A stretch of DNA of 45,557 bases, taken from a virus. Below, one piece after another: positions 1,324 to 42,376 of the stretch. Both the position numbers and the translations under genes were made by a program. The DNA lies in IMG/VR virus record IMGVR_UViG_3300009609_000013; one strand, written 5' to 3'. The notes beneath the pieces are model-generated. The model searched no databases and was not told the origin of the DNA. It worked only from the letters and a program-made list of their open reading frames with translations. The number at the start of each line of letters is the position of its first letter. Within the stretch, counting starts at the first letter, position 1.

Positions 1324-1346
1324 CTTTGGTTAAAGTTTAACCGCAG
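1324..1346. promoter_or_regulatory. palindromic motif copy M1 (ctttGGTTAAAGTTTAACCgcag)
   Basis: Core is a 15-bp perfect palindrome with extended imperfect symmetry. Intergenic. One of 12 copies. Confidence 0.8.
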
Positions 1347-1357
1347 CAATTATGTTG

Positions 1358-1915
1358 CTAGCGATTACGCCGTCCGCGTCCTTCTGCAGGATTATAGTCA
1401 TGCGCTGGAGTCTCAGTTGAGGCAGCAGCTTCAACAGTCTGCGTCGTTGACTCTTGAGTATCACCATTTACTCCTTCAGTGATCGCGGCAATCTCTTCTG
1501 CTGTAGGCTCAGGAGTTCCATTCTCAACTGGAGCAGCAGCTGCTGGCTCGCCACGCTTTGCGAATCGCTCCTGAATAAGCCGTAGGATTTCTTCCTGGCG
1601 TTCAGGAGTCCAATCATCGAAGTTCTCACTAATAACTTTCATCGGATCAACTGTCTTAATAGAAGAAGTCAAACGCACAGAAACGCCGGGCTTCCAGTTG
1701 CTCATTTCTATCTGAATACGCTCAGGTGTTAGGCCAGCTGCTAGCATCTTGCGTGCATTTGCTTGAGCAGCAATTGTAAGTGCACGCTTGAAGAGTTCAT
1801 GTACGTCATCCTCACCGTACGTTTTCACCGCTTCTGGAAGCGTCTCAGAGAAATCGTAGGAGAATTCTATCTCTGGCTTGCCCTGTGTCTTTACGCTAAT
1901 TTGCTCGGATTTCAT
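1358..1915 (-). CDS. hypothetical protein (acidic, Ala/Pro/Glu-rich C-terminus)
   Basis: 185-aa ORF, first gene downstream of the consensus promoter at 2007-2035. Confidence 0.7.
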   Translation of the reverse strand: MKSEQISVKTQGKPEIEFSYDFSETLPEAVKTYGEDDVHELFKRALTIAAQANARKMLAAGLTPERIQIEMSNWKPGVSVRLTSSIKTVDPMKVISENFDDWTPERQEEILRLIQERFAKRGEPAAAAPVENGTPEPTAEEIAAITEGVNGDTQESTTQTVEAAASTETPAHDYNPAEGRGRRNR

Positions 1916-2006
1916 TGATTACCTTTCGTGTGATACGTTAAATGAGATAAGTTCGTGCAGCCCTTTCAGAAATTAAGTTTTCGTTCCCACCTCCAATCAT
2001 ACAGAG

Positions 2007-2035
2007 ATTATAACACACTTTAATCCGTTTGTCAA
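2007..2035 (-). promoter_or_regulatory. sigma70 consensus promoter (TTGACA-N17-TGtTATAAT)
   Basis: Minus strand reads cTTGACAaacggattaaagtgtgtTATAATctc. -35 is 2030-2035 and -10 is 2007-2012, with an extended TG. Confidence 0.8.
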
Positions 2036-2071
2036 GCCCTTTTTTCACTGCTTTTGCATTTTAAGGCTGAT

Positions 2072-2812
2072 TCAAGACCTTTCTATATTAGCACTAAGCA
2101 GCTTCAGCAATTCGCGTAATTCTTCAGGCGGTGCATCAGCTTGCGCCCTTATAACTAATTGTTGTGCGATGCGTATAAATACGGTTCGTAAATTAGTGGA
2201 CCATTGTTGCTTTGTTGCATCATGCAACAAAGGGTTTGGTTTATCAGTTTTACCTCCAGACTTCACATAAGCAGTCCACTCATCACGCGTTAAATTTTGA
2301 GGAGAGGTTGGCACGAACGGAGGTTGCTTTACAGCATTAATATCCCTATGTAACGTACTACGATGTACACCAAGTAGTTTAGCGGTATCACTAACGGACT
2401 GGCCAGGTGCAGTTGGACTTTTGGCTATTTTTGGACCGTGTATTTCGACCAGTGTTTTATGCAACTGTGCACGTAAGTACGATTCCTCGTCCTTGGTCAA
2501 ATCTTTCCTGTCTAAATTCTCGTGCAATTCTATAGCTTTCAATTCGTGCTCAGTCATTAACGTGTTATAAATACGGCATGAGATTTCTGTCCACTTTAGC
2601 ACATTAAGACACGCCTGGTGTCTCCTTGCTCCTGCAACTAACGTGTATGGTGCTTCTCCATTTGGAGAGTACAACACTATAGGATGAATCAAGCCTTGCT
2701 CATTGATTGAGTTGGCAAGATCACTTATTATTCCATAGCTCTGACGCGCACGCGTATCTAAGTCGCATACAATATCACTCATTTTTACTATACGTAATAG
2801 TCCTAAGTTCAT
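2072..2812 (-). CDS. ParB N-terminal-domain (ParB/Srx-like) protein with HTH
   Basis: GLIHPIVLYSP...YTLVAGARRHQAC (ParB GxxRxxA box) followed by an HTH (SVSDTAKLLGVHRSTLHRDI). Alignable by eye over ~160 aa with the N-terminus of the 40254-41603 product. Confidence 0.8.
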   Translation of the reverse strand: MNLGLLRIVKMSDIVCDLDTRARQSYGIISDLANSINEQGLIHPIVLYSPNGEAPYTLVAGARRHQACLNVLKWTEISCRIYNTLMTEHELKAIELHENLDRKDLTKDEESYLRAQLHKTLVEIHGPKIAKSPTAPGQSVSDTAKLLGVHRSTLHRDINAVKQPPFVPTSPQNLTRDEWTAYVKSGGKTDKPNPLLHDATKQQWSTNLRTVFIRIAQQLVIRAQADAPPEELRELLKLLSANIERS

Positions 2813-2824
2813 ATTATAACTCCT

Positions 2825-3241
2825 TCATTTGCCAAGCTTTCGTTTCAGCATTTCTAGCACTCGCTCTAAATCGTCATCATCAACTGCGTCGGCAAGATCA
2901 GCTGGATTATCAAAGTGCTTAGTAATAGGATTCTTTGCACGTGTTGTGCGAGCTTTCTTGTTCTCCTTGTCTTTGTATGGAGTTTTGTATTTGCGCACTT
3001 GCCATGTAAGTGATCCTGCGCTCACGAACTTTTGGTAGGCGTGCAATATAGCTACGTCATGTTTCTCCTTTAAGTGAGGTATATGACACGCTTGACAACG
3101 CACGACACCACAACAAGTTGTCAGATTAGTGCTGTTTGAGCACTTATGTCCACCTTTGGACTCGTACTGAATGATACGCAGCTCGTTAGGTGCTAGTGCC
3201 TTAAGCATGGAAGCCAAAGCTTCTTTTTGTTCGGGCGTCAT
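2825..3241 (-). CDS. Cys-rich (zinc-finger-like) basic protein
   Basis: 138-aa ORF with GGAG upstream. Contains HKCSNSTNLTTCCGVVRCQACHIPH. Confidence 0.65.
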   Translation of the reverse strand: MTPEQKEALASMLKALAPNELRIIQYESKGGHKCSNSTNLTTCCGVVRCQACHIPHLKEKHDVAILHAYQKFVSAGSLTWQVRKYKTPYKDKENKKARTTRAKNPITKHFDNPADLADAVDDDDLERVLEMLKRKLGK

Positions 3242-3293
3242 TTAAGTTATCTCCTTTCAGTTTCACCGAACCACGGCTATAGTAAGATTAAGC

Positions 3294-3500
3294 TCATTGA
3301 ATACGCTGTCTGCGCAAGTTCTCTAATTCCTTGAGTCCTTCCGGATGATCATTTAGTGCTTGATCATGCTTAATATCTCCTTGCCTTATACTGTCAGCTA
3401 TAGAGCGAAAGGCTAATCCTGCTTCAATACCACAGAATATTATCACTGCTGTAAGAGCAAGGTAAAATATCAGCTGAAACACATCAAGCAATCGTTGCAT
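3294..3500 (-). CDS. small membrane protein (one TM helix)
   Basis: 68-aa ORF with AAGGAG upstream. Hydrophobic segment IFYLALTAVIIFCGIEAGLAF. Confidence 0.6.
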   Translation of the reverse strand: MQRLLDVFQLIFYLALTAVIIFCGIEAGLAFRSIADSIRQGDIKHDQALNDHPEGLKELENLRRQRIQ

Positions 3501-3546
3501 GTGCTGTACTCCTTAAGGTAATAATCACTACTATCGGCGCGGCCCT

Positions 3547-3921: not shown

Positions 3922-4004
3922 TACGCATTCTCCTATAGTGTAATTCCTTACTAGTTCGCGGGCAGTCCGGCGAAGCCGGTATTAAACAAACAGTACATTT
4001 TATC

Positions 4005-4475: not shown

Positions 4476-4504
4476 ATTATAGCAGAGATCAGATCAAATG
4501 TCAA
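4476..4504 (-). promoter_or_regulatory. sigma70 consensus promoter (TTGACA-N17-TGcTATAAT)
   Basis: Minus strand reads acTTGACAtttgatctgatctctgcTATAATtaag. Confidence 0.8.
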
Positions 4505-4757: not shown

Positions 4758-4771
4758 TTAAGTTCTCCTTT

Positions 4772-4985
4772 GGCCTAAGCAAGATTGTCTCCCTTTGGGC
4801 AATGAGAGCTTAATTGCTTTATGGGCTTACTTGTAAAGGGACGCTTCGCTTGGCTCCTACGTCGCCACCCTTGACAAGCGCCCAGTCGCAATTCAGCAAA
4901 GAATTGCCCTTCGGGAGAAAATCTTGTCCGGCCTGGAAGCACCGGTAGAACAGCGGTACCCTAAGGGCTACGCGTTGCTCCGCCT
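4772..4985 (-). repeat. structured intergenic element, copy A
   Basis: Closing helix is 4913-4934 paired with 4772-4793. The central hairpin contains a 57-nt block (4825-4881) that is the exact reverse complement of 18005-18061. Limits are approximate. Confidence 0.75.
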
Positions 4986-5296
4986 ATCTGCTTTATAACA
5001 CCCTCATTGTGAGAAGCATTTTTAGCTGTTACTTTATCATCGTAAGCCATACGTTTACGCACTATTTGTGCCTTCCACATACTAGCCTCTAACAATAGAC
5101 TCTTTGTGTGGCTTGCATCGGGAGGTATTCTATTAGGGTAGTGGTCCCTCCTGGCTCGTAAGTACGATCCTAATATACGTGCATCTTCGAGGCATTCACA
5201 CACGTATATTATGGAACTTCCTATGCAACTGGAATCTTCACTGCTCATTATTGAGCATCCACCCAGTTTGGGCATTACGTGAATATAAGCTGGCAT
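4961..5296 (-). CDS. hypothetical protein
   Basis: 111-aa ORF preceded by palindrome M2 and GGAG (aaccGGAGcaatatATG). Its last ~25 nt run into element A. No recognisable domain. Confidence 0.5.
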   Translation of the reverse strand: MPAYIHVMPKLGGCSIMSSEDSSCIGSSIIYVCECLEDARILGSYLRARRDHYPNRIPPDASHTKSLLLEASMWKAQIVRKRMAYDDKVTAKNASHNEGVIKQIGGATRSP

Positions 5297-5302
5297 ATAT
5301 TG

Positions 5303-5325
5303 CTCCGGTTATAATCTAACCATAG
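5303..5325. promoter_or_regulatory. palindromic motif copy M2 (ctccGGTTATAATCTAACCatag)
   Basis: Variant of the 12-copy palindrome, intergenic, immediately 5' of the SD of the 5296 gene. Confidence 0.7.
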
Positions 5326-5374
5326 CACATTAACTGTTGCTTATGGGCCGGTCTTAGCGTGTGCCACACGCAAA

Positions 5375-6510: not shown

Positions 6511-6723
6511 TTATTGAAGTGTTAGCTTAGTCTCCTCTAAGTTGTGTATCTTATAGTATAAGAACGCCCTCTTTAGCCACGCAATTAAAGCAGGCATTTT
6601 TTGTTGCTTGAATTTACGCAGTAATGGTGCAGTGTTCATTATTACTCCTCTACAATCAACTTGTACAAGACAAGCAAAGTTTTCAGTAACTATTTGGTAG
6701 TCAATTGGTAATTGCGTGTTCAT
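6511..6723 (-). CDS. hypothetical protein
   Basis: Start moved to ATG 6723 (MNTQLPIDYQ), which has AAAGGAGT directly upstream. The longer 6783 start would translate palindrome M3 (WLNFNQ). Confidence 0.55.
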   Translation of the reverse strand: MNTQLPIDYQIVTENFACLVQVDCRGVIMNTAPLLRKFKQQKMPALIAWLKRAFLYYKIHNLEETKLTLQ

Positions 6724-6727
6724 ACTC

Positions 6728-6750
6728 CTTTGGTTAAAGTTTAACCATAG
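6728..6750. promoter_or_regulatory. palindromic motif copy M3 (ctttGGTTAAAGTTTAACCatag)
   Basis: Same 15-bp core as M1 and M12. Intergenic. Confidence 0.8.
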
Positions 6751-6839
6751 GATTTGGTCTAAGTAGAGATTTGCCGTAGCCACGCAGGCAGCTTATGGAA
6801 CCGAGCTGGTTGTGTGGTAGGAATTTTCCCTGCTTTTGT

Positions 6840-8375: not shown

Positions 8376-8401
8376 AGGATTCTCCTCATTAAAGTTACGC
8401 A

Positions 8402-8682
8402 GTTATGATGTTATGATGTTCAGCCTATGTCCCCCGGTATGCATTTACTTGCTATTTTTCCTAGAGTGCATTTACTTACTATTATACTATTTCTATTAGT
8501 ACTCTTTTCTCTCTCTCTCTATTATTACTATATATTTTTTATAGTAATAAAAGGAGGAAAAGGAAAGCTAACGCGTAAGTAAAAAAGACTCCTAAATAAG
8601 CCTTCTAAATAAGCCTTCTTAAATGCACTATAAGTAAAATATATCCAGGCCCCCATTGTCTGAACATCATAATGTCATTATA
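8402..8682. repeat. nested palindromic, AT-rich region in the divergent early control region
   Basis: Concentric inverted repeats around ~8540: 8411-8423 ttatgatgttcag with 8660-8672 ctgaacatcataa; 8462-8473 with 8621-8632 (11/12); 8522-8532 ttattactata with 8540-8550 tatagtaataa. The region also holds a (CT)6 run at 8509-8520 and a tandem 13-mer taaataagccttc x2 at 8593-8618. Confidence 0.8.
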
Positions 8683-8705
8683 TCATATGTTTCGTAAGTT
8701 GTCAA
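8677..8705 (-). promoter_or_regulatory. leftward early sigma70 consensus promoter (TTGACA-N17-TGaTATAAT)
   Basis: Minus strand reads gcTTGACAacttacgaaacatatgaTATAATgac. Its transcript would cross the nested palindrome before reaching the 8375 gene. Confidence 0.8.
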
Positions 8706-8799
8706 GCCATTACTCATTCTTTTTATCTATCACTAACACAATCAGTAATAGTCTGTATCAATGAGTGCATCAAAGATGCTATAAGCATGTATTCTTTCC

Positions 8800-8828
8800 T
8801 TGACATTTCAGCAAAACTGTGATATAAT
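8800..8828 (+). promoter_or_regulatory. rightward early sigma70 consensus promoter (TTGACA-N17-TGaTATAAT)
   Basis: ccTTGACAtttcagcaaaactgtgaTATAATtac. Overlapping palindromes gcatcaaagatgc (8767-8779) and atgctataagcat (8776-8788) lie just upstream. Confidence 0.85.
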
Positions 8829-8891
8829 TACTGACTGAATGGGTAAGCCAGGCGTAATGAGTGCCATTCTCAACCTGAAGGAATTTACCTT

Positions 8892-9542: not shown

Positions 9543-9634
9543 GTACAAATATACTCGGGCGCGCTGTAAGTAATGCGCTTAACCTTTTTCAGCCGGCTTA
9601 ATCAGCGGTAACTGTCTAAGTACGTTAGCATATG

Positions 9635-9657
9635 CTGCGGTTAAAATTCAACCAAAG
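9635..9657. promoter_or_regulatory. palindromic motif copy M4 (ctgcGGTTAAAATTCAACCaaag)
   Basis: Variant copy between the convergent genes 9267-9542 and 9718-9984. Confidence 0.65.
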
Positions 9658-9674
9658 CAAAATTTTAGACGCAG

Positions 9675-11005: not shown

Positions 11006-11034
11006 ATTGTTGCACACCAAACTCAGCTTGTCAA
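11006..11034 (-). promoter_or_regulatory. sigma70-like promoter (TTGACA-N17-AACAAT), proximal of a tandem pair
   Basis: Minus strand reads TTGACAagctgagtttggtgtgcAACAATtaaagtgtgagc. Part of a ~45-bp block duplicated 79 bp upstream. Confidence 0.5.
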
Positions 11035-11084: not shown

Positions 11085-11113
11085 ATTGTTGCATATCGCT
11101 AGGAGTTTGTCAA
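11085..11113 (-). promoter_or_regulatory. sigma70-like promoter (TTGACA-N17-AACAAT), distal of a tandem pair
   Basis: Minus strand reads TTGACAaactcctagcgatatgcAACAATattagtgtgagc. Confidence 0.5.
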
Positions 11114-11304: not shown

Positions 11305-11333
11305 ATTATACCACACTTTAGCCTCAATGTCAA
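11305..11333 (-). promoter_or_regulatory. sigma70 consensus promoter (TTGACA-N17-TGgTATAAT)
   Basis: Minus strand reads gcTTGACAttgaggctaaagtgtggTATAATtac. It fires into the GC-rich island. Confidence 0.8.
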
Positions 11334-11469: not shown

Positions 11470-11498
11470 TTGACATTTGCCCTCAAAACTGATATAAT
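11470..11498 (+). promoter_or_regulatory. sigma70 consensus promoter (TTGACA-N17-TGaTATAAT) heading the plus-strand arm
   Basis: gcTTGACAtttgccctcaaaactgaTATAATttg. Closely resembles the 8800 promoter (shared TTGACATTT and AAAACTG). Confidence 0.85.
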
Positions 11499-12109: not shown

Positions 12110-12649
12110 ATGGATGACTCAACAGACAACAAGCACTCAGGTGATTCTCACCTGGAAAACTTAACTGATAACAAATACTTGTATGACAAACGTTTTGTTG
12201 AGAAGCGCAATTACGAAGTTAAGGCACTCTGGGAGAATCACCACAGCATGTTACGTATGCTAGCACTAGGCCATTCCAATGCTGACATTGCAGAAGCTCA
12301 TGGTGTTACTCCGCAAACAGTCTCTAACTTACGCAACTCTCCCGTTGCTAAAACGAAACTGCTTTCATTGCGCCAGACTCTTGATAGCGAAGCGATTGAT
12401 ATTGGTGCTCGCATTAACGAGTTTGCACCACTGGCACTCAAGCTACTTGAAGATGTCATTAGCGGTGAAGTTGAGGCGCCTATTGCTATTCGTGCTAAGT
12501 ATGCAAGTGTTCACTTAGGTCGCGCTGGCTTTGGCGAGGTCAAAAAAATCGCCTCAGTTAACACTCACTTGACACGCGATGATATTGAAGCAATAAAACT
12601 ACGTGCACTAGCTTCTGCAAGTGAAGCAGGTTTGATAGTAGAAGACTAA
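12110..12649 (+). CDS. HTH-domain protein, candidate small terminase subunit
   Basis: LuxR/sigma-region-4-like HTH (LALGHSNADIAEAHGVTPQTVSNL). Its position two genes upstream of terL, separated only by the homing-endonuclease gene, suggests TerS. A regulatory role cannot be excluded. Confidence 0.5.
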   Translation: MDDSTDNKHSGDSHLENLTDNKYLYDKRFVEKRNYEVKALWENHHSMLRMLALGHSNADIAEAHGVTPQTVSNLRNSPVAKTKLLSLRQTLDSEAIDIGARINEFAPLALKLLEDVISGEVEAPIAIRAKYASVHLGRAGFGEVKKIASVNTHLTRDDIEAIKLRALASASEAGLIVED

Positions 12650-12689
12650 TTGCTGTGTCAATTTTCTAACCATAGGAGGCTTAATTACT

Positions 12690-17794: not shown

Positions 17795-17844
17795 TGCGGC
17801 ACGGCGTGCCTCAAACCTCCCGCGCGTAAGTAACACATAATTCA

Positions 17845-17867
17845 CTTTGGTTGAATTTTAACCAAAG
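17845..17867. promoter_or_regulatory. palindromic motif copy M5 (ctttGGTTGAATTTTAACCaaag)
   Basis: Intergenic, 90 nt 5' of element C. Confidence 0.75.
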
Positions 17868-17953
17868 CAATGGAGTTGTACTATGATCCCAAAACGCTAC
17901 GCCGCGCAGAATAGCGCGCCACTGATCCTGTTCCAGTACACACTCTTACTCCC

Positions 17954-18113
17954 AGGCCGGTCAAGTTTTTCCCCAAGGGGCGCTCTTAAGGGAATGCGAG
18001 TGGAGCGCTTGTCAAGGGTGGCGACGTAGGAGCCAAGCGAAGCGTCCCTTTACAAGTAAGCGACATGAGTGTTACCTTCTCAAGCCCCTGCAGGGAAATA
18101 ACTTGCTTAGGCT
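17954..18113 (+). repeat. structured intergenic element, copy C
   Basis: 5' arm aggccggtcaagtttttcccc pairs with 3' arm gggaaataacttgcttaggct. Hairpin cttgtcaaggg...ccctttacaag spans 18008-18056. The 57-nt block 18005-18061 is the reverse complement of 4825-4881. Confidence 0.75.
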
Positions 18114-18133
18114 AATTACTGAGGATAAATAAG

Positions 18134-20470: not shown

Positions 20471-20473
20471 CTG

Positions 20474-20496
20474 CTTTGGTTAAACTTTAACCGGAG
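20474..20496. promoter_or_regulatory. palindromic motif copy M6 (ctttGGTTAAACTTTAACCggag)
   Basis: Intergenic, 20 nt 5' of ATG 20513. Confidence 0.8.
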
Positions 20497-20512
20497 CAAT
20501 TGGAGTTACGTT

Positions 20513-22210: not shown

Positions 22211-22214
22211 TTCG

Positions 22215-22237
22215 CTGCGGTTAGAATTTAACCGAAG
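22215..22237. promoter_or_regulatory. palindromic motif copy M7 (ctgcGGTTAGAATTTAACCgaag)
   Basis: Intergenic, 16 nt 5' of GTG 22250. Confidence 0.75.
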
Positions 22238-22249
22238 GAATTTTCTTGT

Positions 22250-27402: not shown

Positions 27403-27405
27403 TTA

Positions 27406-27428
27406 CTTTGGTTAAATTCTAACCGCAG
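27406..27428. promoter_or_regulatory. palindromic motif copy M8 (ctttGGTTAAATTCTAACCgcag)
   Basis: Intergenic, 20 nt 5' of ATG 27445. Confidence 0.8.
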
Positions 27429-27444
27429 CATTGGAGATTAAGCA

Positions 27445-29096: not shown

Positions 29097-29112
29097 TTGC
29101 TCACAAGAATTA

Positions 29113-29135
29113 GTGTGGTTACATTTTAACCAAAG
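29113..29135. promoter_or_regulatory. palindromic motif copy M9 (gtgtGGTTACATTTTAACCaaag)
   Basis: Intergenic, 65 nt 5' of element D. Confidence 0.7.
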
Positions 29136-29196
29136 CAACAATGTAAAACTGTGGTGCCGAGCAACGCGAGGTCAGTGATTCCCTGTACTTCAGCGC

Positions 29197-34529: not shown

Positions 34530-34530
34530 T

Positions 34531-35094
34531 TTGCTTTGGATAGATTTTAACCACAGCAATATAATTCACTTGTTTGTCATTCTCTTTTTACTTAGTTCTT
34601 GCTCGCACCAAAAAGATAAGTTTACTCTAATTGAGGGTGAAATTATACTAACAATTCCTTACTCTACGGCATCAGTGTCTACAAGTGGAAATATAAAAGC
34701 TGGCACAATTACTCCAGAAGAGTTTCAGAAGCAATATGGTACTTTAATTGCCACGACTCCCGAAGCAGGGACGCTGTTCACACTATATTTTATTACTGGT
34801 ACTACAACGCTTACACCAGAGAGCTTACATGAGATACCTTTAATAAAAGCTGAAATTGAACGACGTAAATTTGTTGAGATTGAGATAACCGGACATGCAG
34901 ACCAGACTGGCGATTATGCTAATAATGATCAGCTTTCATTATCTCGTGCTGAACTGGCACGAAGTACTATTGAGAATGATGGAATATACGTAGATTTTGT
35001 ACGTGTTATAGGACGCGGCTCACGTGCACCGCTTATTGATTCTCCAGGAAAAGATGAGCCTAAAAACAGACGCGTTGAAATTCTAGTACGTTAG
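34531..35094 (+). CDS. OmpA/Pal-like peptidoglycan-binding lipoprotein
   Basis: Lipobox LFLLSSC followed by an OmpA_C pattern: EIEITGHADQTGDYANNDQLSLSRAELARSTI...GRGSRAPL...NRRVEILV. The start is uncertain (TTG 34531, GTG 34507 or TTG 34570). The listed ATG 34426 overlaps the upstream gene by 104 nt. Confidence 0.75.
   Translation: MLWIDFNHSNIIHLFVILFLLSSCSHQKDKFTLIEGEIILTIPYSTASVSTSGNIKAGTITPEEFQKQYGTLIATTPEAGTLFTLYFITGTTTLTPESLHEIPLIKAEIERRKFVEIEITGHADQTGDYANNDQLSLSRAELARSTIENDGIYVDFVRVIGRGSRAPLIDSPGKDEPKNRRVEILVR
34534..34556. promoter_or_regulatory. palindromic motif copy M10 (ctttGGATAGATTTTAACCacag)
   Basis: Degenerate left half. Lies between the 1717-aa gene and the lipoprotein signal peptide. 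Confidence 0.65.
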
Positions 35095-36583: not shown

Positions 36584-39500
36584 TTATATTCCTAAAGTTA
36601 AAATTGCATCTTGTAGATATGCTTCCAATACATACGGATCATTACTAAATTTGTCTCCTTTCAATTCAATACCTAAATGCTTGTTTAGGCATAAGTTAAC
36701 TACTAAATCAACTGGCACCACAAATTCCACGTTACGATACCGTAACGGAGCTTCCAGAGAAGCTTTAATACTTAATAGAATTCGTGCGTGATCTGCAAGT
36801 GGTAAGCTCAACGGTATTTGAATACTAACCGAATCGTGTACTTGAGTAAGTAACTCAACGTGCTTGAATAGTGGATCTGAATTATAGTAGATGAAATTTA
36901 GTCCCTGTTCATTTACTAAATCTCCGCACGTACCTTGAGGGATACAACTATAAGCCTCATTGAGCAGCTTGTCATCATACTTTCCTAAAAACGTAATTTT
37001 CCTGCCATACAAGTTAGTGAGTGTGCGTGTAGACTTGATTGTATCTTCTACATATTTCCAGTATCCACCTTTAAGTCCTGGATAAGCTGCGTGATATCTA
37101 TCGTAAATAAATTTAGCTTGTCGTTCAGGTATTTCATACTTGAGGCTAAATGACTTGTATCCAAAACCGTAATTAAAACCGTGATTTGCTCTCTTCGACC
37201 AATCCCTCTGTGAATGAGTGCCATTACCCAAGCTAGATGATCCATGCTCATTACTAACTTCGTCATATGGCACTCCAAATATAAGTGCCCCAGTCATACG
37301 ATGTATATCTAAGTTGTTTTCGTACACTTCTTTCATTTGCGTGATATTACCAACGTACGCAACAATACGTGCTTCAATCTGCGACATATCAAGTGAATAA
37401 ATAACGTATCCTGCATCTGCTACGTAGTAGCTAAGCACATCATGAGGTATATTCTGCAAGTTAGTGTTTCCTGTGACGCATATTCTATCCTCGTATCGAG
37501 TAAGAAAAAATGAAGTCTCAGTTTCTATACAGTAAACAGGTCCATCGTAATTGATCAAACTAAAATAATCCTCCTGTTGTTTTGCTAATACTCTAGGCTT
37601 TATATTAACAGTGTATAATCCTTTAGCTGAGAATTCTCCGTACGATTCCAGAGCTCTATTTTCACCCCAATTTATTGTTGCTGATTTGCCGCACAAGTGC
37701 GCAAGTGTAGCTACCCATTCGGCATTCTGTTTTACTGCAGTAAAATACCAAAAGCTCGTTCCTCTTCTATGTGCATCCCAGTGTGAAATTTCGTCCAATA
37801 AAGAACTTAGACTTTGCTGGTCAAATCTAAGCAACCACGAATCAAAGAGTTTGCTTCTGCCACTCCTATTAAGTAATTCTATGAACTCCTTACACTCACT
37901 TACAGGCAAGTAAAATCTTCTGTACCCATTATATGCAGTACGATGTTCGTTGTATTGAATCCCGAATATTTCCATAAGTACTAAGAAACGTGCTATCTTT
38001 TCCTTTTTCTTAAATTGAAAGGTTATAGAATTTCCTTCTATACTGCCGTCAGCTTGTATTACTGCCAATAGACGTATTGCAGGCCAGCTTATTTTTCCAC
38101 TTTTATACTCCCCTCCTATAGGCAGCATCCACTCACCAGTAAATACGGCTTCGTATGCAGGCTTAACTATAAATTTATTACGGTGTGAGACTGTAGGTAT
38201 TCTATGATCTAGCGTATAACAGTTTCTGTGTAACGTTGAGTTAGCACGTATCATCTTACCGCTATTTTTTGTTACGTGTATTTTTGGTACACACCATGAT
38301 AGCGACCAATCAGTATCCCATTGAAGTACTTCTGTATCTTCTTTTAATTCATCTAGTCTAATCCATCCACTTTTTGTGAATACCTCAGCTCTAGGAAGTA
38401 AACAACCAGTTCCGAATATATTTGCACTGCTTGATATTCTACTAAATCGTGTACCTACTGGATTATATGAGCATCTCATACGACCGTCATCATCTACGTT
38501 CTCGACGTTGAGAAATGTTGATGCCTTCTTTTGCAGCCGGCGAACCTCAAGTATTAAACTTGCTTCTTTAAATCCCTTGTTAGCTATACGTGTTAATGCT
38601 TCCTCATCTACAGTAGGCTTGCCAATCTTACTCAAGTATGGAGCTAACCCACGATTCGTATAAAAATACTCGCATACTTGCTGCGGTGAAGCCAAGTTAA
38701 ACGCATTAGTGTTCATTATACTATATGCCTGTTGCGTTAATTCATCAGCTTCCAATCGAGCATTTCTTGCAGCCCTATCCATACCCTCACGATCTATTCT
38801 GATTCCACGCTCCATCATATAGCTTAATGGTCCAACTAATTTTATTTGACGCTCGTATGCATCGTAATTACCACGCTCTTCCAATTCAGCTAGCTGCTTA
38901 GGAAATGCATCCGCACATGCGATACTATCAAGACAGTTGTAGGCCCAGCCCTTGCTATATTCACCTACACCAGTTAGCCACAACTTGCCGTCACGTTTAT
39001 AGTAAGGAATGTCCGTCCACATTGCAGTGATAAATTCCAGTGTTTTGCCTCGGTACGTTTTGCCACCAAAATCTGGATAGAGAATATGCTGAGCTATCAT
39101 CGTATCAGCTTTGATATTACGCGTACGAATTCCATACTTGCGTAGCAGAAAGTGTGAATCGAATACTATATTCTGCCCGCCTTTTATATAACTATCATTG
39201 CCAAGAAGATTTTCGATGCTTAACATCAGCTCATATTCTTGTTCAGCGCTAAAATAATCACCATTTGCATCCACGAATGGAATGCACAGCACATCAATTT
39301 CGTTAGTTGCAAAGCTAATACAGCTTAGCTCTTGTGTCTTAGGTGTTAATTCAATGTCGTAATATATTATACCTCCATTCTCAGCTACTTGTTTGCACTC
39401 TTCTAACCAGCTTATACATTCGTAGTAGCTAGGTTGAGTACGCAATTTGCGATCAGTTAATCTAATATCAGGAAATTCAGATTCTGTACGAATCTTCTTA

Positions 39501-40018
39501 AAGTCTAGTGTAATGAGATACTTCGCAAGATACGCTGCTGGATTCGCGAGCACTTTTTCATCAGTGTATATAGCAGGATGTAGCGTAGGGATGACTTTCC
39601 TTCCCGGCAGGAGAGTTGATTCAAGTATACTACCACGCCATGCAGTAATTCCAACTCGACCCGTAAGAGCAAATAATGAAGTGTTTCCCATAGCAACAAT
39701 AACATTAGCTTTAGTTTTGTTGAGTTCGTCGCGCAGCACCTCTAAATACCGCTGACCAAGTACGCTTATATTCGCACGTCCATTCACACCGGACTTAATA
39801 TCTAAGTAATGTTTGAGTTCGAATTCAACGTCCTTAATTACATTAGTTAGATAACAGCTGCCTCGTGAAATCCTAGCATTCATGAGACACTCATTGAGGT
39901 TTCTACCAGCTGGTCCCATGAAGGGTTTACCATAGCGTACTTCATACTTTGCCGGCTGCTCGCCAACAAGTGCTATTTTGCTACTCAACAGTCCGTCTGG
40001 TCCGACTAGCTGCGGCAT
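36584..40018 (-). CDS. polA: family-A DNA polymerase with N-terminal UDG-superfamily domain, interrupted by an intein
   Basis: UDG-like motifs: LVGEQPAKYE, GKPFMGPAG, TLHPAIY. Exonuclease motif: IYYDIELT. Polymerase motifs: SLDMSQIEARI, TNLQNIP, LTQVHDSV. 1144 aa, of which 313 aa are intein. Confidence 0.9.
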   Translation of the reverse strand: MPQLVGPDGLLSSKIALVGEQPAKYEVRYGKPFMGPAGRNLNECLMNARISRGSCYLTNVIKDVEFELKHYLDIKSGVNGRANISVLGQRYLEVLRDELNKTKANVIVAMGNTSLFALTGRVGITAWRGSILESTLLPGRKVIPTLHPAIYTDEKVLANPAAYLAKYLITLDFKKIRTESEFPDIRLTDRKLRTQPSYYECISWLEECKQVAENGGIIYYDIELTPKTQELSCISFATNEIDVLCIPFVDANGDYFSAEQEYELMLSIENLLGNDSYIKGGQNIVFDSHFLLRKYGIRTRNIKADTMIAQHILYPDFGGKTYRGKTLEFITAMWTDIPYYKRDGKLWLTGVGEYSKGWAYNCLDSIACADAFPKQLAELEERGNYDAYERQIKLVGPLSYMMERGIRIDREGMDRAARNARLEADELTQQAYSIMNTNAFNLASPQQVCEYFYTNRGLAPYLSKIGKPTVDEEALTRIANKGFKEASLILEVRRLQKKASTFLNVENVDDDGRMRCSYNPVGTRFSRISSSANIFGTGCLLPRAEVFTKSGWIRLDELKEDTEVLQWDTDWSLSWCVPKIHVTKNSGKMIRANSTLHRNCYTLDHRIPTVSHRNKFIVKPAYEAVFTGEWMLPIGGEYKSGKISWPAIRLLAVIQADGSIEGNSITFQFKKKEKIARFLVLMEIFGIQYNEHRTAYNGYRRFYLPVSECKEFIELLNRSGRSKLFDSWLLRFDQQSLSSLLDEISHWDAHRRGTSFWYFTAVKQNAEWVATLAHLCGKSATINWGENRALESYGEFSAKGLYTVNIKPRVLAKQQEDYFSLINYDGPVYCIETETSFFLTRYEDRICVTGNTNLQNIPHDVLSYYVADAGYVIYSLDMSQIEARIVAYVGNITQMKEVYENNLDIHRMTGALIFGVPYDEVSNEHGSSSLGNGTHSQRDWSKRANHGFNYGFGYKSFSLKYEIPERQAKFIYDRYHAAYPGLKGGYWKYVEDTIKSTRTLTNLYGRKITFLGKYDDKLLNEAYSCIPQGTCGDLVNEQGLNFIYYNSDPLFKHVELLTQVHDSVSIQIPLSLPLADHARILLSIKASLEAPLRYRNVEFVVPVDLVVNLCLNKHLGIELKGDKFSNDPYVLEAYLQDAILTLGI
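37466..38404 (-). mobile_element. intein (313 aa) with LAGLIDADG homing-endonuclease domain in the polymerase gene
   Basis: Starts at Cys in FGTG/CLLPRAEV. Block B is TLDH. The endonuclease motifs are LLAVIQADGSI and LLDEISHWDAH. It ends ...VYCIETETSFFL...ICVTGN/TNLQNIP, which places it immediately N-terminal of the conserved (P)NLQNIP motif. The penultimate residue is Gly rather than the usual His. Confidence 0.8.
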
Positions 40019-40020
40019 AA

Positions 40021-40257
40021 TTACCTCTTTCTATTCGCACGATAATCAGTTATTTTAGACTGCGATCCAATAAATTCCTGCAATTCAAGTGCTAATTTCT
40101 CCTCAGTTTCTCCGTAGCAAATAACTATACTTATATTTGGGCCCGTTAATCCAAACTCGTTCAGTTTCACAGCTATAGGTTCACCAGATTTTAAACGCCT
40201 TACATTTTCTTCAGTTATTCCAAAGATAAAATGATTGCCTGCTTGTGCTCGTATCAT
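40021..40257 (-). CDS. hypothetical protein
   Basis: 78-aa ORF overlapping the methyltransferase stop by 4 nt. Confidence 0.6.
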   Translation of the reverse strand: MIRAQAGNHFIFGITEENVRRLKSGEPIAVKLNEFGLTGPNISIVICYGETEEKLALELQEFIGSQSKITDYRANRKR

Positions 40258-41603
40258 TTTGCTCTTACCTCATGAATAAGCCTATTAATGTACGCATTAT
40301 GGAAGTTTGGACTCAAGTCAAAGCCAACACTTTTGTGACCAAGCTCAAATGCAGTTCGTATTGTTACTCCACTTCCTGCGAATGGTACAAGTATATTCGA
40401 TCCGGGCCAAACAAAAGTGTCGAGTATTTCTTTCATCAAAGCCGATGGCCTCTCAGTTGGATGTATACGCTGCGAAGGTGGTACTCCCGCAAAGTCGAAC
40501 ACATTACTCCTACCTTGTTTACGTATTTGTGCACCTCCTTTTCTGCCGTACACGAACATTTCGTAGGAGTTACCTAAGTTAGTTGACATTCCCTGCGCTT
40601 GCCCTTGTGAATTACCCTTCTTCCATATAGCTGGAATTTTGCACGTCTCAAACTTCGCACGTTGCATAGTACTTATAACACGTGCAATATGTTCTGGCCC
40701 ACACCAGATGATGATATAGCTGTTGTCAGCAGCAAGTCGATAACACTCATCAGTTAGGCGGTTTAGGAATGCTAGATAATCTACGTTACTAATCTCCTTA
40801 TAATCGTGCTGCAAACTTGGATTAGTATCACCATCAGCACGTTGCTCTTGCAAGTCAATTCCATACGGTGGATCACACTCTATAAATCCAAACTGTGCAG
40901 GCTCAAGTGAATTATCGAAGAAGTCACCTACTATGTATGCACTAAGCGGATCATCAGGACTTGTCATACGACCAGATAGCACGGCGTCTCTGCGAGCTTC
41001 AGCAACAGCAACTTTATTCGTTATCACACTCGCTGCACGCGCAAGCTTCTTTAGTGCCGCTGACTTATTCTTCTCTTTATCAAGTTCAAGTTCAGGCAAG
41101 ACACGCATGGCATCAGCGAGTTTCATATCTTGCAGAATAGTAGCATGGCTTACTCCTAATGTACGAGCAGTATCTCTAACTGAATGCCCAGGAGCATCTG
41201 CACTACGTGCTACTTTCTCACCGTGAATTTGAACAAGTGTTAAATGTAGACGCTCTTTCATTTTCACTTCTTCGCTGTAGTTTAAACTGAGTCGGTCTAG
41301 ATTCTCGAATAGTTCTACAGCTGCAAGTTCTAGATCAGTCATAGGCTTGTCATAAATACGGCAACTAATTTCGTCCATTTTTAGTGCTGTGCAAGCCATG
41401 AAACGTCTACCACCGGCCACAAGTTTATATGGCTGCTCACCAGTCGGAGAGTACACAGCAATCGGATGTATTAATCCGTACTTTTCAATTGAGGTCATTA
41501 AGTCCTGTATAATGCCATAGTCTTGACGACCGCGGTGATCTGAGTCTAGATCAATTTGCTCCATTGGAATAACGCGCAGAATGCCGAGATTAATTGTAGG
41601 CAT
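40254..41603 (-). CDS. ParB-like N-terminal domain fused to an N6/N4 DNA methyltransferase
   Basis: N-terminus: GLIHPIAVYSP...YKLVAGGRRFMAC plus an HTH. C-terminus: FIECDPPYG (motif IV) then NILVPFAGSGVT (motif I), which is the beta-class motif order. Confidence 0.85.
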   Translation of the reverse strand: MPTINLGILRVIPMEQIDLDSDHRGRQDYGIIQDLMTSIEKYGLIHPIAVYSPTGEQPYKLVAGGRRFMACTALKMDEISCRIYDKPMTDLELAAVELFENLDRLSLNYSEEVKMKERLHLTLVQIHGEKVARSADAPGHSVRDTARTLGVSHATILQDMKLADAMRVLPELELDKEKNKSAALKKLARAASVITNKVAVAEARRDAVLSGRMTSPDDPLSAYIVGDFFDNSLEPAQFGFIECDPPYGIDLQEQRADGDTNPSLQHDYKEISNVDYLAFLNRLTDECYRLAADNSYIIIWCGPEHIARVISTMQRAKFETCKIPAIWKKGNSQGQAQGMSTNLGNSYEMFVYGRKGGAQIRKQGRSNVFDFAGVPPSQRIHPTERPSALMKEILDTFVWPGSNILVPFAGSGVTIRTAFELGHKSVGFDLSPNFHNAYINRLIHEVRAK

Positions 41604-41833
41604 TACAGTAGATTCTCCTGGCGCTTAGCCATTAATGTGTAATAGAGATCAGCTAATTGCTTTTCACTAAGATTAGCTATTGCGGATTCGGCAGTAATCT
41701 CTTTACGTTTCTCACGGGTAGGCTTAGGTTCTACTAATCTACGACGTAGGCGCATTTCGAGGACCAGTTTCATTCCTTCTTCAGGAGGTAAGTTAGATAA
41801 GCTGATTATTTTTAAGTCATCTAATGAAGCCAT
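41603..41833 (-). CDS. hypothetical protein
   Basis: 76-aa ORF with GAGGATAA upstream and a TAATG overlap with the downstream gene. Confidence 0.6.
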   Translation of the reverse strand: MASLDDLKIISLSNLPPEEGMKLVLEMRLRRRLVEPKPTREKRKEITAESAIANLSEKQLADLYYTLMAKRQENLL

Positions 41834-41857
41834 TTATCCTCGCAATCCTATTTCCTT

Positions 41858-41994
41858 GCAGAGCCTAGGGATTATGATGCTGCACTGCGCTGCTTGTCAA
41901 GACTCACTACGTTCGACCCCTACGGGGCAACTTGACAACCTGCTCGTTTGCTGGAAGCAAGAGTAGGCTCTGCCGGAAAAAGTCTTGTCGGCTC
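41858..41994 (-). repeat. structured intergenic element, copy E
   Basis: Closing helix gcagagcct (41965-41973 on the minus strand) pairs with aggctctgc (41858-41866). Hairpin is 41893-41938. The 5' arm gagccgacaagactttttccgg lies at 41973-41994. Confidence 0.7.
41871..41900 (-). promoter_or_regulatory. sigma70-like promoter embedded in element E (TTGACA-N18-CATAAT)
   Basis: Minus strand reads tcTTGACAagcagcgcagtgcagcatCATAATccctagg, ~35 nt upstream of ATG 41833. Confidence 0.5.
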
Positions 41995-42082
41995 GGGAAG
42001 TGGGAGTCTGTACTTGGACCGTATCACCTTCCCTCGCAAGCTCGGGCCATTACGCTTTGGGATTATAGCACGCATGAATCTC

Positions 42083-42105
42083 CTTTGGTTAAAATCTAAC
42101 CAGAG
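42083..42105. promoter_or_regulatory. palindromic motif copy M11 (ctttGGTTAAAATCTAACCagag)
   Basis: Intergenic, 92 nt 5' of element E in the minus sense. Confidence 0.75.
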
Positions 42106-42110
42106 CACTT

Positions 42111-42338
42111 TCATTCCACTCTCCTCATGTAGTCTTGAACTGTACGCTTGTAACTCACCTCGCGGCTAAGCATTGCGAGCACAAAGTATTGGCCAAACTC
42201 ATCGAGCATAACTATTGCATCATCCACTATTACACTGAAGACTTGCTTAAGCTGGCCATGCTCCAGGTGCTGCTTGAGCTTGTTATATTGCTGATCAGTT
42301 ACCTCAAATGTTATCCTGTGTGTATAAGGCTTATTCAT
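42111..42338 (-). CDS. hypothetical protein (possible ribbon-helix-helix N-terminus)
   Basis: 75 aa, with RITFEVTDQQYNKLKQ. AGGAG upstream. Confidence 0.55.
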   Translation of the reverse strand: MNKPYTHRITFEVTDQQYNKLKQHLEHGQLKQVFSVIVDDAIVMLDEFGQYFVLAMLSREVSYKRTVQDYMRRVE

Positions 42339-42353
42339 AGCATGCTCTCACTC

Positions 42354-42376
42354 CTGTGGTTAAAGTTTAACCGCAG
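42354..42376. promoter_or_regulatory. palindromic motif copy M12 (ctgtGGTTAAAGTTTAACCgcag)
   Basis: Same 15-bp core as M1 and M3. Intergenic. Confidence 0.8.

Follow-up and report, generated by a model that had tools for sequence, protein, structure and literature searches.

A repeated intergenic palindrome in a phage genome and a ParB-methyltransferase fusion as its probable reader

The DNA analysed here, a stretch of 45,557 nucleotides from an uncultivated phage (IMG/VR record IMGVR_UViG_3300009609_000013; the window), carries 12 copies of the palindrome GGTTAnAnTnTAACC, nine exact and three with one mismatch, where none are expected. These sites are real, lie between genes and evolve under purifying selection. 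We think it somewhat better than an even chance, judging from sequence comparisons, that they are specific double-stranded-DNA sites like parS or OB that are read by a dimer of a phage ParB-family protein, most likely the ParB-CTPase/HTH/N6-adenine methyltransferase fusion encoded at 40254-41603. ParB-methyltransferases are a common class of phage proteins with no described DNA targets; cognate sites and a specificity rule are proposed here.

Exact matches to GGTTANANTNTAACC occur nine times in the genome and in 0 of 100 shuffles, a control proposed in an earlier note on this sequence. The three one-mismatch copies start at 9639 (GGTTAAAATTCAACC), 17849 (GGTTGAATTTTAACC) and 34538 (GGATAGATTTTAACC), and a scan allowing two mismatches adds a single match at 20266, which is at chance level (about 1.8 expected). 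With a position weight matrix derived from 50 unique copies, scores are bimodal: exactly 12 sites reach 25-38, a relic at 12657 has 9.9, and no site takes an intermediate value. All 12 cores listed in the earlier note were recovered, as were its three perfect palindromes (GGTTAAAGTTTAACC at 1328, 6732 and 42358), its half-degenerate copy near 12655 and the symmetry of the flanks (tGCTnT ... AnAGCAat); the copy at 20478 is also perfectly palindromic and differs from these three in having the complementary base at its centre. The copies and the relic, all unstranded, are:

1320-1350: copy 1, core 1328-1342 GGTTAAAGTTTAACC with conserved flanks, between minus-strand genes 1358-1915 and 921-1274
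5299-5329: copy 2, core 5307-5321 GGTTATAATCTAACC, 10 nt upstream of the start of minus-strand gene 4961-5296
6724-6754: copy 3, core 6732-6746, minus strand CCTATGGTTAAACTTTAACCAAAGGAGtATG
9631-9661: copy 4, core 9639-9653 GGTTAAAATTCAACC, one mismatch, at the end of a short rightward early operon
12649-12675: relic, decayed ATTGCTGTGTCAATTTTCTAACCATAG, orthologous to intact copies in the relatives c44455, c45884 and c17791
17841-17871: copy 5, core 17849-17863 GGTTGAATTTTAACC, following the portal and 85-aa genes, with repeated element A immediately after it
20470-20500: copy 6, core 20478-20492 GGTTAAACTTTAACC, directly 3' of the major capsid gene
22211-22241: copy 7, core 22219-22233
27402-27432: copy 8, core 27410-27424
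29109-29139: copy 9, core 29117-29131
34530-34560: copy 10, core 34538-34552 GGATAGATTTTAACC, one mismatch, in the gap separating the 1717-aa gene from that of the OmpA-like lipoprotein
42079-42109: copy 11, core 42087-42101, 3' of the 75-aa gene (42111-42338) and ahead of repeated element B
42350-42380: copy 12, core 42358-42372, upstream of the 75-aa gene 42111-42338

In agreement with the observation that no full copy lies inside a gene, all 12 sites fall in gaps between our gene calls, and two are overlapped solely by ORFs whose first possible start precedes a better SD-plus-ATG. Gaps of at least 25 bp make up roughly 7% of the genome when summed from the gene calls, which gives 12/12 a chance probability of about 1e-14. 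The distances to start codons and the minus-arm contact with the SD described previously are correct; at copy 3 the minus strand reads CCTATGGTTAAACTTTAACCAAAGGAGtATG, so that the SD of gene 6511-6723 coincides with the right flank. The motif is common to related phages, where its core is invariant while flanks and neighbouring genes fall to 65-80% nucleotide identity, and most positions are orthologous. The position of copy 6 after the major capsid gene is kept in all close relatives, and the intact orthologues of the 12657 relic sit just upstream of the large terminase gene in c44455, c45884 and c17791. A GC-rich hairpin comes after copy 1 in the direction of transcription and a terminator-like hairpin follows copy 4.

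The proteins considered as possible readers are encoded as follows:

40254-41603, minus strand: ParB-CTPase/HTH/N6-adenine methyltransferase fusion, 449 aa, proposed binder
41100-41180, minus strand: predicted helix-turn-helix codons of the fusion (helix 142-149, turn, recognition helix 153-168, GVSHATILQDMKLADAMRV)
42111-42338, minus strand: conserved 75-aa protein with two flanking motif copies, syntenic with the ParB-methyltransferase across the family
2072-2812, minus strand: standalone ParB-like paralogue, 246 aa, ParB_N plus HTH

The fusion comprises ParB_N (aa 13-102), HTH (aa 142-168) and N6_N4_Mtase (aa 240-437) domains with the motifs GGRR (64-67), ENLDR (100-104) and DPPY (244-247). 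Its N-terminal half matches Noc, Spo0J and ParB by sequence and Noc by fold (E = 3e-9), the AlphaFold2 model (pLDDT 84) forms a helix-turn-helix from 142-149 and 153-168, and the whole family shares, without variation, the GGRR and ENxxR nucleotide-binding motifs of the ParB fold. The canonical ParB C-terminal dimerisation domain is absent, which counts against the proposed reading. The same fusion occurs in at least 360 relatives in IMG/VR (counts of 355-363), and about two thirds of the long fusion loci have a repeated palindrome of their own, 15-17 bp long and built on a common frame of T-8, G-7 and an A/T-rich centre. The lineage-specific bases are -6 to -3, and the inner-base types include GGTTAAA, GGAAAAA, GGTAATT, GGTGATT, GGGGA, GTTCAAA, GTTTAAA and GTCCCAA among others. 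Motif type is not linked to terminase phylogeny. Also counting against the reading, a repeated palindrome is absent in about 17 of about 52 long loci encoding the fusion, and in the L147/L194 lineage the element is asymmetric, its right half merging with the SD.

Across these lineages, sequence comparison indicates that the site shifts together with one short segment of the fusion and with none of the other segments and proteins compared. Motif distance shows no correlation with the fusion outside aa 151-160 (r = 0.06) and a correlation with aa 151-160 (r = 0.39, permutation p = 0.0004, Mantel-type tests being known as liberal), the maximum among 88 sliding windows (family-wise p = 0.020). Residue 153, His in this phage (H153), co-varies with palindrome base -6: where that base is G, the residue is His or Arg in 8/8 independent clusters, and where it is T, neither is found in 7/8, the L238 lineage violating the rule. 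The rule held in new contigs, which gave 3/3 vs 0/9 (Fisher 0.0045) with a register-shifted case included and 2/2 vs 0/9 (Fisher 0.018) without it. These tests assume independence of clusters from lineages without a settled deep phylogeny, and motif types were read partly by eye. The earlier suggestion to examine the ParB-like proteins was thus on target for the fusion, whose recognition helix co-varies with the motif. The other candidates named there fared less well: the HTH protein 12110-12649 is small-terminase-like and its recognition helix shows no co-variation with the motif, and the standalone ParB (2072-2812) is missing from motif-keeping relatives.

The earlier note had left open an operator for a dimeric regulator, an RNA hairpin or an unusual promoter. 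A DNA site rather than an RNA helix is favoured by the statistics of the two arms. The left arm and the mirrored right arm have the same preferences per position (T over C at ±8, T at ±10, C at ±11, T at ±13), and the arms vary independently, with (-1,+1) pairs of TA 29, TG 12, CA 8 and CG 1. Eight single-sided core variants lack a compensating change, and G.U and A.C mismatches across the arms are equally frequent (83 vs 84). The base at -8 is T or C in 50/50 copies and never G, that at -6 is G in 50/50 and that at -5 is T in 49/50. Counting against a symmetric DNA site, which does not explain it, is the central base, a pyrimidine in 36/50 copies in sense orientation. This 36:14 bias would suit an intercistronic hairpin that is read by an RNase or RNA-binding protein and sets mRNA processing, stability or translation of the next gene, like T7 RNase III sites, and so would the location within long operons between a stop codon and the following SD, the SD itself forming the 3' arm or flank in several lineages, the common purine.purine pairs at ±9 (22 vs 6 mirrored) and the ease with which a helix accommodates a one-base-pair change of register (15 vs 17 bp). 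Inner arms also differ among lineages yet stay complementary, but the DNA model likewise keeps them so. Within a lineage, however, compensatory changes are absent, the closing pair is C.A in eight copies and C-G in one, G.U has no preference over A.C, and a helix would not require strict conservation at every stem base. The predicted folds are short and weak (-7 to -16 kcal/mol per 59 nt, similar on both strands), and the motif had no match in Rfam. RNase III substrates are typically roughly 20 bp, longer than the mismatched 13-16 bp duplex here. We therefore regard the hairpin as rather unlikely. What stands of the operator proposal is a DNA site for a dimeric protein; a classical operator is doubtful, given that none of the sites coincides with a promoter.

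Among DNA-binding alternatives, the sites could serve as operators or roadblocks for another phage protein (the 75-aa protein, the standalone ParB or another regulator), like stoperators or phiC31 inverted repeats, which is unlikely. The 75-aa gene is bracketed by two motif copies both here and in c17791 and is syntenic with the ParB-methyltransferase family-wide, and its N-terminal xRPRLSIEITEEQ recalls by eye a ribbon-helix-helix (Pfam NikA-like, E = 0.08). Yet this N-terminal strand is nearly invariant across lineages with differing motifs, and motif type shows no correlation with any window of the protein (maximum r = 0.13), for which AlphaFold2 gave an unreliable model (pLDDT 48). The standalone ParB carries Arg at the H153 equivalent and might read the sites of this genome as well, but c44455 and c45884, both motif-bearing, lack it. 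Neither Pfam nor PHROGs revealed a repressor or integrase in the phage. We hold it quite unlikely that the motifs are sites for the host nucleoid protein Fis that bend or organise phage DNA or sense host growth phase. High-affinity Fis sites have G at -7 and C at +7, A/T from -2 to +2, a Y-R step at ±(3-4) and no T at +4 (PMC2816674, PMC4784862). The core and flanks of this phage have every published determinant, including a T-A step at ±(3-4), the -8 base (T or C, never G) is compatible in 50/50 copies, the GTTCAAwwwTTGAAC type also fits, and the independence of motif type from terminase phylogeny agrees with a host reader. However, Fis does not read -6 and -5, which are constant inside any one genome (G 50/50, T 49/50) and vary among lineages in step with the phage protein, several types depart from what Fis requires (A at -4, C at -3, 17-bp spacing), and the match was picked out from among many consensus sequences. 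Very improbable is a promoter of a phage-specific transcription system or a small mobile repeat (REP-/MITE-like) spread through the genome. The element is repeated, intergenic and near-identical among copies, and one copy in c17791 lies about 30 nt upstream of a TTGACA box, but six perfect extended -10 sigma-70 promoters (TTGACA-N14-TGn-TATAAT) are all away from the motifs, which lie deep within long operons. Several copies abut the SD, leaving no space for a -10 element and transcription start, and the motif as a promoter, including the unusual promoter suggested earlier, was rejected. The palindrome also has no direction, its positions are orthologous across genomes at 65-80% identity, turnover is slow, target duplications are absent, and no RNA polymerase, RAYT or transposase was found in the phage.

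If the fusion is the reader, the recognition helix of each monomer (aa 153-168) would occupy the major groove of one half-site at -8 to -3, and the A/T-rich centre would not be read base by base. By analogy with ParB, Noc and KorB, the fusion may load at the 12 sites as a nucleotide-gated clamp and spread along the phage DNA, which could let the fused methyltransferase mark the phage's own genome, for instance against restriction, and/or the bound fusion may modulate expression within long operons. The proposed contacts do not cover the conserved outer flank TGCT...AGCA, which counts against the reading. So does the fact that canonical ParB, through the residue aligned to H153, touches the base adjoining the dyad and not an outer one (PMC7383237); either the geometry differs or the alignment is wrong.

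Among known systems, Fis sites share the 15-bp core, G/C at ±7, the A/T centre, the Y-R step and T/A at ±8 (PMC2816674, PMC4784862), but the phage motif has extra invariant information at -6 and -5 and in the outer flanks, and its variants are lineage-specific, tracking the phage rather than a host protein. Start-associated sequences (SAS) and extended SAS (ESAS) of Cluster K mycobacteriophages, whose function is not established (PMC3203893), Cluster A stoperators and phiC31 repeats resemble the present element as short conserved repeats, 10-30 per phage genome, that are limited to small intergenic gaps beside translation starts and vary in consensus among sub-lineages. SAS and stoperators are asymmetric and oriented with transcription and ESAS are 17-bp inverted repeats with a variable spacer of 4-13 bp, whereas the element here is a compact palindrome with a fixed one-base centre. 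Stoperators and the phiC31 conserved inverted repeats are bound by a temperate-phage immunity repressor; this phage has no detected repressor or integrase.

Fusions of ParB-CTPase and N6_N4 methyltransferase (PF02195 plus PF01555), the domain architecture of the 40254-41603 protein, are described in one survey as frequent in phages and prophages, of unassigned role and perhaps anti-defence (PMC12704722), and a search of its text for 'palindrom' returned no report of cognate DNA sites.

Closer parallels are found in KorB and in ParB/Noc. Plasmid RK2 carries 12 OB sites. The OB core of its KorB is TTTAGCSGCTAAA (PMC11790492), and both systems, as proposed for the phage, pair an HTH-bearing ParB-fold protein with a palindrome of odd length whose central base is degenerate. 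In each, some dozen intergenic copies are spread around one mobile replicon, many of them promoter-distant. KorB loads as a CTP-gated sliding clamp, which the phage fusion would do by analogy only. Unlike KorB, the phage protein has an N6-adenine methyltransferase joined to its ParB module where KorB has a C-terminal dimerisation domain. The phage yielded no partner resembling KorA or ParA, its replicon shows no sign of plasmid maintenance, and its sites lie within operons between a stop codon and the next SD. ParB-parS and Noc-NBS share a homologous fold (Noc, Spo0J and ParB by sequence, Noc by structure) and palindromic targets of similar size. However, parS and NBS are 16-bp even palindromes read to the dyad, whereas the phage centre is A/T-rich and probably not read, the specific bases being -8 to -3, and the phage lacks a partition function, ParA or a membrane-targeting helix. 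As proposed here for the phage, ParB/Noc specificity depends on a small set of residues within and close to the HTH recognition helix, and changes at these residues diversify it (PMC7383237).

Scanning the window for GGTTANANTNTAACC returned nine exact occurrences, as against no match in 100 shuffled sequences, and all of the 12 sites listed in the earlier note were recovered once a single mismatch was allowed. With a position weight matrix built from 50 unique copies in the window and its relatives, these 12 sites score 25-38 and a decayed copy (the relic at 12657) scores 9.9, while no other position exceeds 8. Each of the 12 lies in a gap between genes, as had been proposed from the sequence alone, and the suspicion that some gene calls were overextended was likewise borne out: two open reading frames cross a site, and both have a better Shine-Dalgarno sequence (SD) and start codon directly downstream of the motif. 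Core and flanks together form a 27-bp site, TGCTTTGGTTAAACTTTAACCAAAGCA. Relatives also carry multiple copies of a palindrome on the same replicon, and nearly all sites are found at orthologous intergenic junctions in relatives that are only 65-80% identical in DNA, where the core GGTTAAAnTTTAACC is constant and the flanks diverge, so that the sites and their conservation are established. The half-degenerate copy noticed near 12655 turned out to be the decayed orthologue of copies that three relatives keep intact directly in front of their large terminase gene. A mobile repeat of the REP/MITE type was rejected because positions are orthologous at 65-80% identity and the sole change seen is this decay in place; Pfam and PHROGs scans detected neither a RAYT nor a transposase. 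Likenesses to the T7 gene 10 'epsilon' enhancer, the T4 MotA box and helix 17 of the 16S rRNA were dropped as coincidences.

The ends of the window are 100% identical (1-123 and 45435-45557), and the contig is therefore a complete assembly, circularly closed or terminally redundant, of a 45,434-bp genome. It belongs to an uncultivated tailed phage with the following layout.

Features of the window (coordinates, strand, description)
1-8.4 kb and 35.1-45.5 kb, minus strand: replication and early genes, among them a DUF3987-family primase-like protein, a family A polymerase (UDG-like and exonuclease domains), the ParB-methyltransferase (40254-41603, a 449-aa fusion of ParB-CTPase, helix-turn-helix and N6-adenine methyltransferase), a PD-(D/E)XK exonuclease and an AAA_24 ATPase
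11.5-35 kb, plus strand: packaging and virion genes
2007-2035, minus strand: perfect promoter
4476-4504, minus strand: perfect promoter
8677-8705, minus strand: perfect promoter
8800-8828, plus strand: perfect promoter
11305-11333, minus strand: perfect promoter
11470-11498, plus strand: perfect promoter
11006-11034, minus strand: near-perfect promoter, two mismatches
11085-11113, minus strand: near-perfect promoter, two mismatches
17864-18133, plus strand: element A, paralogous and non-coding in appearance
41834-42086, minus strand: element B, paralogous to A
~4760-4960, minus strand: element C, paralogous to A and B

In GenBank the nearest match is LS06-2018-MD01, a Desulfofustis phage recovered from a metagenome, whose large terminase is 48% identical; it is also the sole relative found among GenBank phages; none of these is a cultured relative, and none has DNA-level similarity to the window. 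A host search by terminase across 185,579 genomes gave no match, and the corresponding motif scan yielded only chance palindromes and one related phage contig in a 'Dehalococcoidaceae' MAG. An OmpA-family lipoprotein gene at the end of the virion operon (34570-35094, plus strand; Pfam OmpA E = 2e-12, lipobox LSSC, TTG start) suggests that the host is Gram-negative. Elsewhere in the genome, the polymerase gene (36584-40018, minus strand) contains an insertion of ~945 nt (37463-38405) that is missing from all of the relatives' polymerases (2.49 kb); it has a weak LAGLIDADG_3 match at aa 648-703 and is probably an intein. The gene for a 543-aa virion protein (25771-27402), with a C-terminal part similar to an endolysin or tape-measure peptidase segment, holds five in-frame repeats at 26662-26969 in a 33-nt register, with start-to-start spacings of 99, 33, 66 and 66 nt. 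Between divergent early promoters, ~500 bp of non-coding DNA (8376-8891) form a candidate origin or control region, with a 42-nt inverted repeat at 8405-8446 / 8637-8678 as well as two 27-nt repeats in tandem (8425-8478).

The earlier note had considered that the motif could be part of an unusual promoter. Canonical promoters are located elsewhere: the six perfect extended -10 sigma-70 promoters (TTGACA-N14-TGn-TATAAT; fewer than one expected by chance) and the two near-perfect ones, three of them in leftward tandem at 11.0-11.3 kb, imply that the host polymerase transcribes a few very long operons. No motif adjoins any of the six, and the motifs thus lie deep inside these operons. Several copies directly adjoin the following gene's SD, so that there is no space for a -10 element and a transcription start, and the palindrome has no direction, so the promoter reading was abandoned. 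A role of the 1717-aa protein as virion RNA polymerase, pointing to hairpin promoters of the N4 kind, found no support either: the protein has no match in Pfam and a single family of unknown function in PHROGs.

A two-codon leader ORF (ATG-CTA-TGA, 42335-42343, minus strand) with a well-spaced SD overlaps the start of the gene for a 75-aa protein (ATGA) and is kept in the relative c17791. Just downstream of the motif at 1328, a GC-rich hairpin on the minus strand (~1290-1316; CTGCCGGA...TCCGGCAG) retains its pairing with different sequences in c17791 and in a second relative, c44455, and a similar terminator-like hairpin comes after motif 9639. Elements A, B and C measure ~200-270 nt; A as well as B comes immediately after a copy of the palindrome, and a 57-nt stretch is 100% identical between A and C (18005-18061 vs 4825-4881). 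Their conserved stem, TTGTCAAG...CTTnACAAG, shows compensatory change in 7 of 30 predicted pairs, they have no Rfam match, and the short ORFs inside them are not conserved; they may represent a new phage RNA.

Relatives over a wide range of divergence were gathered by motif and protein searches of IMG/VR, giving a family of at least 360 members with more than 10 different site variants. The window's motif persists in those whose large terminase is at least 75% identical, and more distant ones have a different repeated palindrome within the same frame, (C)CTnT-G......C-AnAG(G), with T at -8, G at -7 and an A/T-rich center (positions numbered outward from the central base).

Site variants in the family
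GGAAAAA, GGTAATT, GGTAAAT, GGTTAAT, GGTGAAA, GGTGATT
GGGTAAAA, GGGGA-N5-TCCCC, GTTCAAA, GTTTAAA, GTCCAA
GTCCCAA, in the Desulfofustis phage: tGCTATGTCCCAAnTTGGGACATAGCAA, eight copies

Motif type does not follow terminase relatedness, because the window's own motif recurs in a lineage with only 49% terminase identity (the 'Dehalococcoidaceae' MAG contig) and locus L125, at 64%, has a different one. One lineage carries an asymmetric version of the element (the L147 type), and ~17 of ~52 long loci had no repeated palindrome. Positions -6 to -3 are uniform among the copies within a genome and differ between lineages, so the protein that reads them must be specific and co-evolve with its sites. 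Two sets of records within the family deserve mention. The phage at 49% (L167/L157/L156; CAYGVP010000038.1, CAYGVP010000191.1, 'uncultured Dehalococcoidaceae' MAG; portal 48%) has the motif GGTTAAAwTTTAACC, with C for G at the first base in several copies, and its placement in that MAG may be a binning artefact. IMGVR_UViG_3300045946_000018 (L121, L146, L147) and 3300045977_000067, of 91 kb and 64 kb, each contain two different family members, with polymerases 77% and 53% identical to that of the window, and are probably chimeric assemblies.

Three proteins failed as readers. The small-terminase-like helix-turn-helix (HTH) protein at 12110-12649, one of the binders suggested earlier, has a recognition helix that does not track the motif: it is identical where motifs differ (window vs L125; L167 vs L117) and differs among lineages that share one motif. 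The standalone ParB (2072-2812, minus strand), suggested likewise, is missing from the relatives c44455 and c45884, both of which keep the motif; its N-terminal domain and that of the ParB-methyltransferase are paralogues, with 72% DNA identity over 78 nt (2510-2587 vs 41295-41372). The 75-aa protein (42111-42338, minus strand) is conserved throughout the family and flanked by two motif copies; it was rejected as the specificity determinant, as lineages of different motif type have almost the same N-terminal strand, RPRLSIEIT, and its r against motif type never exceeds 0.13. Its AlphaFold2 model has a pLDDT of 48 and its PDB profile matches are spurious.

The ParB-methyltransferase, the other ParB-like protein put forward as a binder, is found in every lineage examined. 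Pfam ParB_N matches it at E = 3e-9, its sequence matches include Noc, Spo0J and ParB structures, and Foldseek relates the N-terminal half to Noc (E = 3e-9, 192 columns) and the C-terminal half, a beta-class N6-adenine methyltransferase domain with DPPY, to CcrM, M.RsrI and M1.HpyAVI. The nucleotide-binding motifs of this ParB-like fold, GGRR (64-67) and ENLDR (100-104), are intact, with G64, R67, E100, N101 and R104 invariant and R66 at least 90% conserved among 38 homologues. In the AlphaFold2 model from the 38-sequence alignment (pLDDT 84; 89-92 across aa 140-170), helix 142-149, a turn and helix 153-168 form a predicted HTH after the N-terminal domain, for which Pfam gives weak matches (HTH_50, E = 6e-4).

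It is the recognition helix of this predicted HTH that co-varies with motif type. Over 20 lineages, distance between motif half-sites correlates with distance in aa 151-160, the N-terminal half of the helix (r = 0.39, p = 0.0004), compared with r = 0.06 for the rest of the protein and -0.15 to 0.15 for the ParB domain, the linker, the first HTH helix and the methyltransferase domain. When 88 windows of ten residues are scanned blind, the maximum falls at the same residues (family-wise p = 0.020); a second peak at aa 366-375 in the methyltransferase domain (r = 0.32) is not significant after correction (family-wise p = 0.15). Residue 153 follows a conserved Ser (in the window it is H153, within GVS-H-ATILQDMKL); 8/8 sequence clusters with G at -6 have His or Arg here, and 7/8 clusters with T at -6 have Lys, Val, Ile or Pro. 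Guanine is classically contacted by His and Arg side chains. The rule was reproduced in a second set of relatives, of which only previously unseen contigs were scored: with G at -6 we found His in L271 and Arg in L304/L306 and the register-shifted L314, and with T at -6 nine clusters had Cys, Pro, Val or Lys and none had His or Arg (Fisher p = 0.0045; 0.018 without L314). By pattern, H153 aligns with the Arg of Spo0J 'GKARSTVANALRLL', which is probably the R173 specificity residue of Caulobacter ParB. R173 contacts the base beside the dyad (PMC7383237), which means that the geometry must be different here unless the alignment of H153 is wrong. Together, the co-variation and the out-of-sample pairing of His/Arg with G at -6 indirectly support the ParB-methyltransferase as a candidate for specific binding of the palindromes.

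When the 50 copies are oriented by local transcription direction, the left arm and the mirrored right arm show the same preferences at each position, including secondary ones (-8: T 41, C 9; +8: A 37, G 13; T and A at -10 and +10, C and G at -11 and +11, T and A at -13 and +13). The arms are nevertheless independent: (-8,+8) is T/A in 29 copies, T/G in 12, C/A in 8 and C/G in 1, so that C at -8 is almost never paired with G at +8; pairing at +-11 and +-12 is exactly that expected from independent columns, and +-9 is mismatched in most copies. All eight single-base departures in the core are uncompensated, and no double-sided change occurs within the lineage among the 50 copies. Such a pattern marks two identical half-sites that a symmetric dimer reads on double-stranded DNA, and not a selected helix. 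An intercistronic RNA hairpin, as the earlier note had also envisaged, whether of RNase III type or otherwise structured, is accordingly an unlikely basis for the palindromes: G.U-type and A.C-type combinations are equally frequent over all positions (83 vs 84), the hairpins predicted for 59 nt are weak, at -7 to -16 kcal/mol, and no better in sense than in antisense, and Rfam and ARAGORN detected no RNA family and no tRNA in the window. What survives of the proposal is some tie to expression, suggested by a pyrimidine at the central base of the sense strand (36/50 copies, 10/12 in the window), by a right flank that is fused to the SD in several lineages, and by the asymmetric L147 type. A further asymmetry is that purines tend to occupy -9 and +9 alike on the sense strand. 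Sites acting at the RNA level would constitute an unusually sequence-constrained processing signal.

For the window type of motif, the sites of host Fis are a serious look-alike. In the 50-copy table, the window type agrees with all published determinants of a Fis site, namely G at -7 and C at +7, A/T from -2 to +2, a Y-R step at +-(3-4), no T at +4, and T/A but never G at +-8 (PMC2816674, PMC4784862). However, -6 and -5 are not read by Fis, yet they are invariant within genomes here and co-vary with a phage protein; we consider Fis an improbable explanation.

If the ParB-methyltransferase is the reader, its dimer would bind each palindrome. It may then behave like ParB, Noc and KorB, closing as a nucleotide-gated clamp and spreading (PMC11790492, PMC7383237). 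With twelve loading sites at a mean spacing of 3.8 kb and a largest gap of 7.5 kb, the whole chromosome would be covered, and phage DNA could be marked specifically by the fused methyltransferase. A dimer bound between one gene's stop codon and the SD of the next might also serve as a roadblock or regulator. A tentative and, in its entirety, somewhat doubtful reading is that of a nucleotide-gated sliding methyltransferase, which would load only at the dozen parS-like palindromes and diffuse along the phage chromosome methylating adenines, giving self-specific protection from restriction and leaving host DNA unmodified, with the co-evolution of site and helix keeping related phages from loading each other's enzyme. 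If the proposed target sites and the residue rule hold, they would carry the parS/sliding-clamp principle beyond segregation and gene silencing into DNA modification, and would account for one class of conserved repeats between the genes of uncultivated phages.

Fusions of ParB-CTPase and methyltransferase are among the most frequent phage architectures with a ParB fold, and their role and DNA targets are given as not known (PMC12704722); in the same survey, related methyltransferase fusions bound ATP rather than CTP. That ParB modules direct DNA-modifying enzymes to loci is an older, unconfirmed idea (PMC13229309). For this class the window provides 12 candidate target sites and a rule of one residue for one base (His/Arg153 with G at -6), which, with at least 360 relatives, make the question of targets testable with oligonucleotides and one purified protein. 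Among known intergenic repeats, stoperators/SAS are asymmetric, 13-14 bp long and in one orientation relative to transcription, and ESAS are 17-bp inverted repeats with a variable spacer of 4-13 bp (PMC3203893), unlike the element described here with its symmetric core and fixed one-base center. With the ParB/parS type, the window shares the ParB nucleotide-binding fold, a predicted HTH and repeated palindromes on the same replicon. Whereas partition ParB has a C-terminal dimerization domain and a ParA partner, the window's protein has a methyltransferase half instead, and the sole ATPase found in the window is of the AAA_24 type, so that we regard the system as one of the ParB/parS kind and not as a partition system, its closest working model being KorB with its OB sites on RK2.
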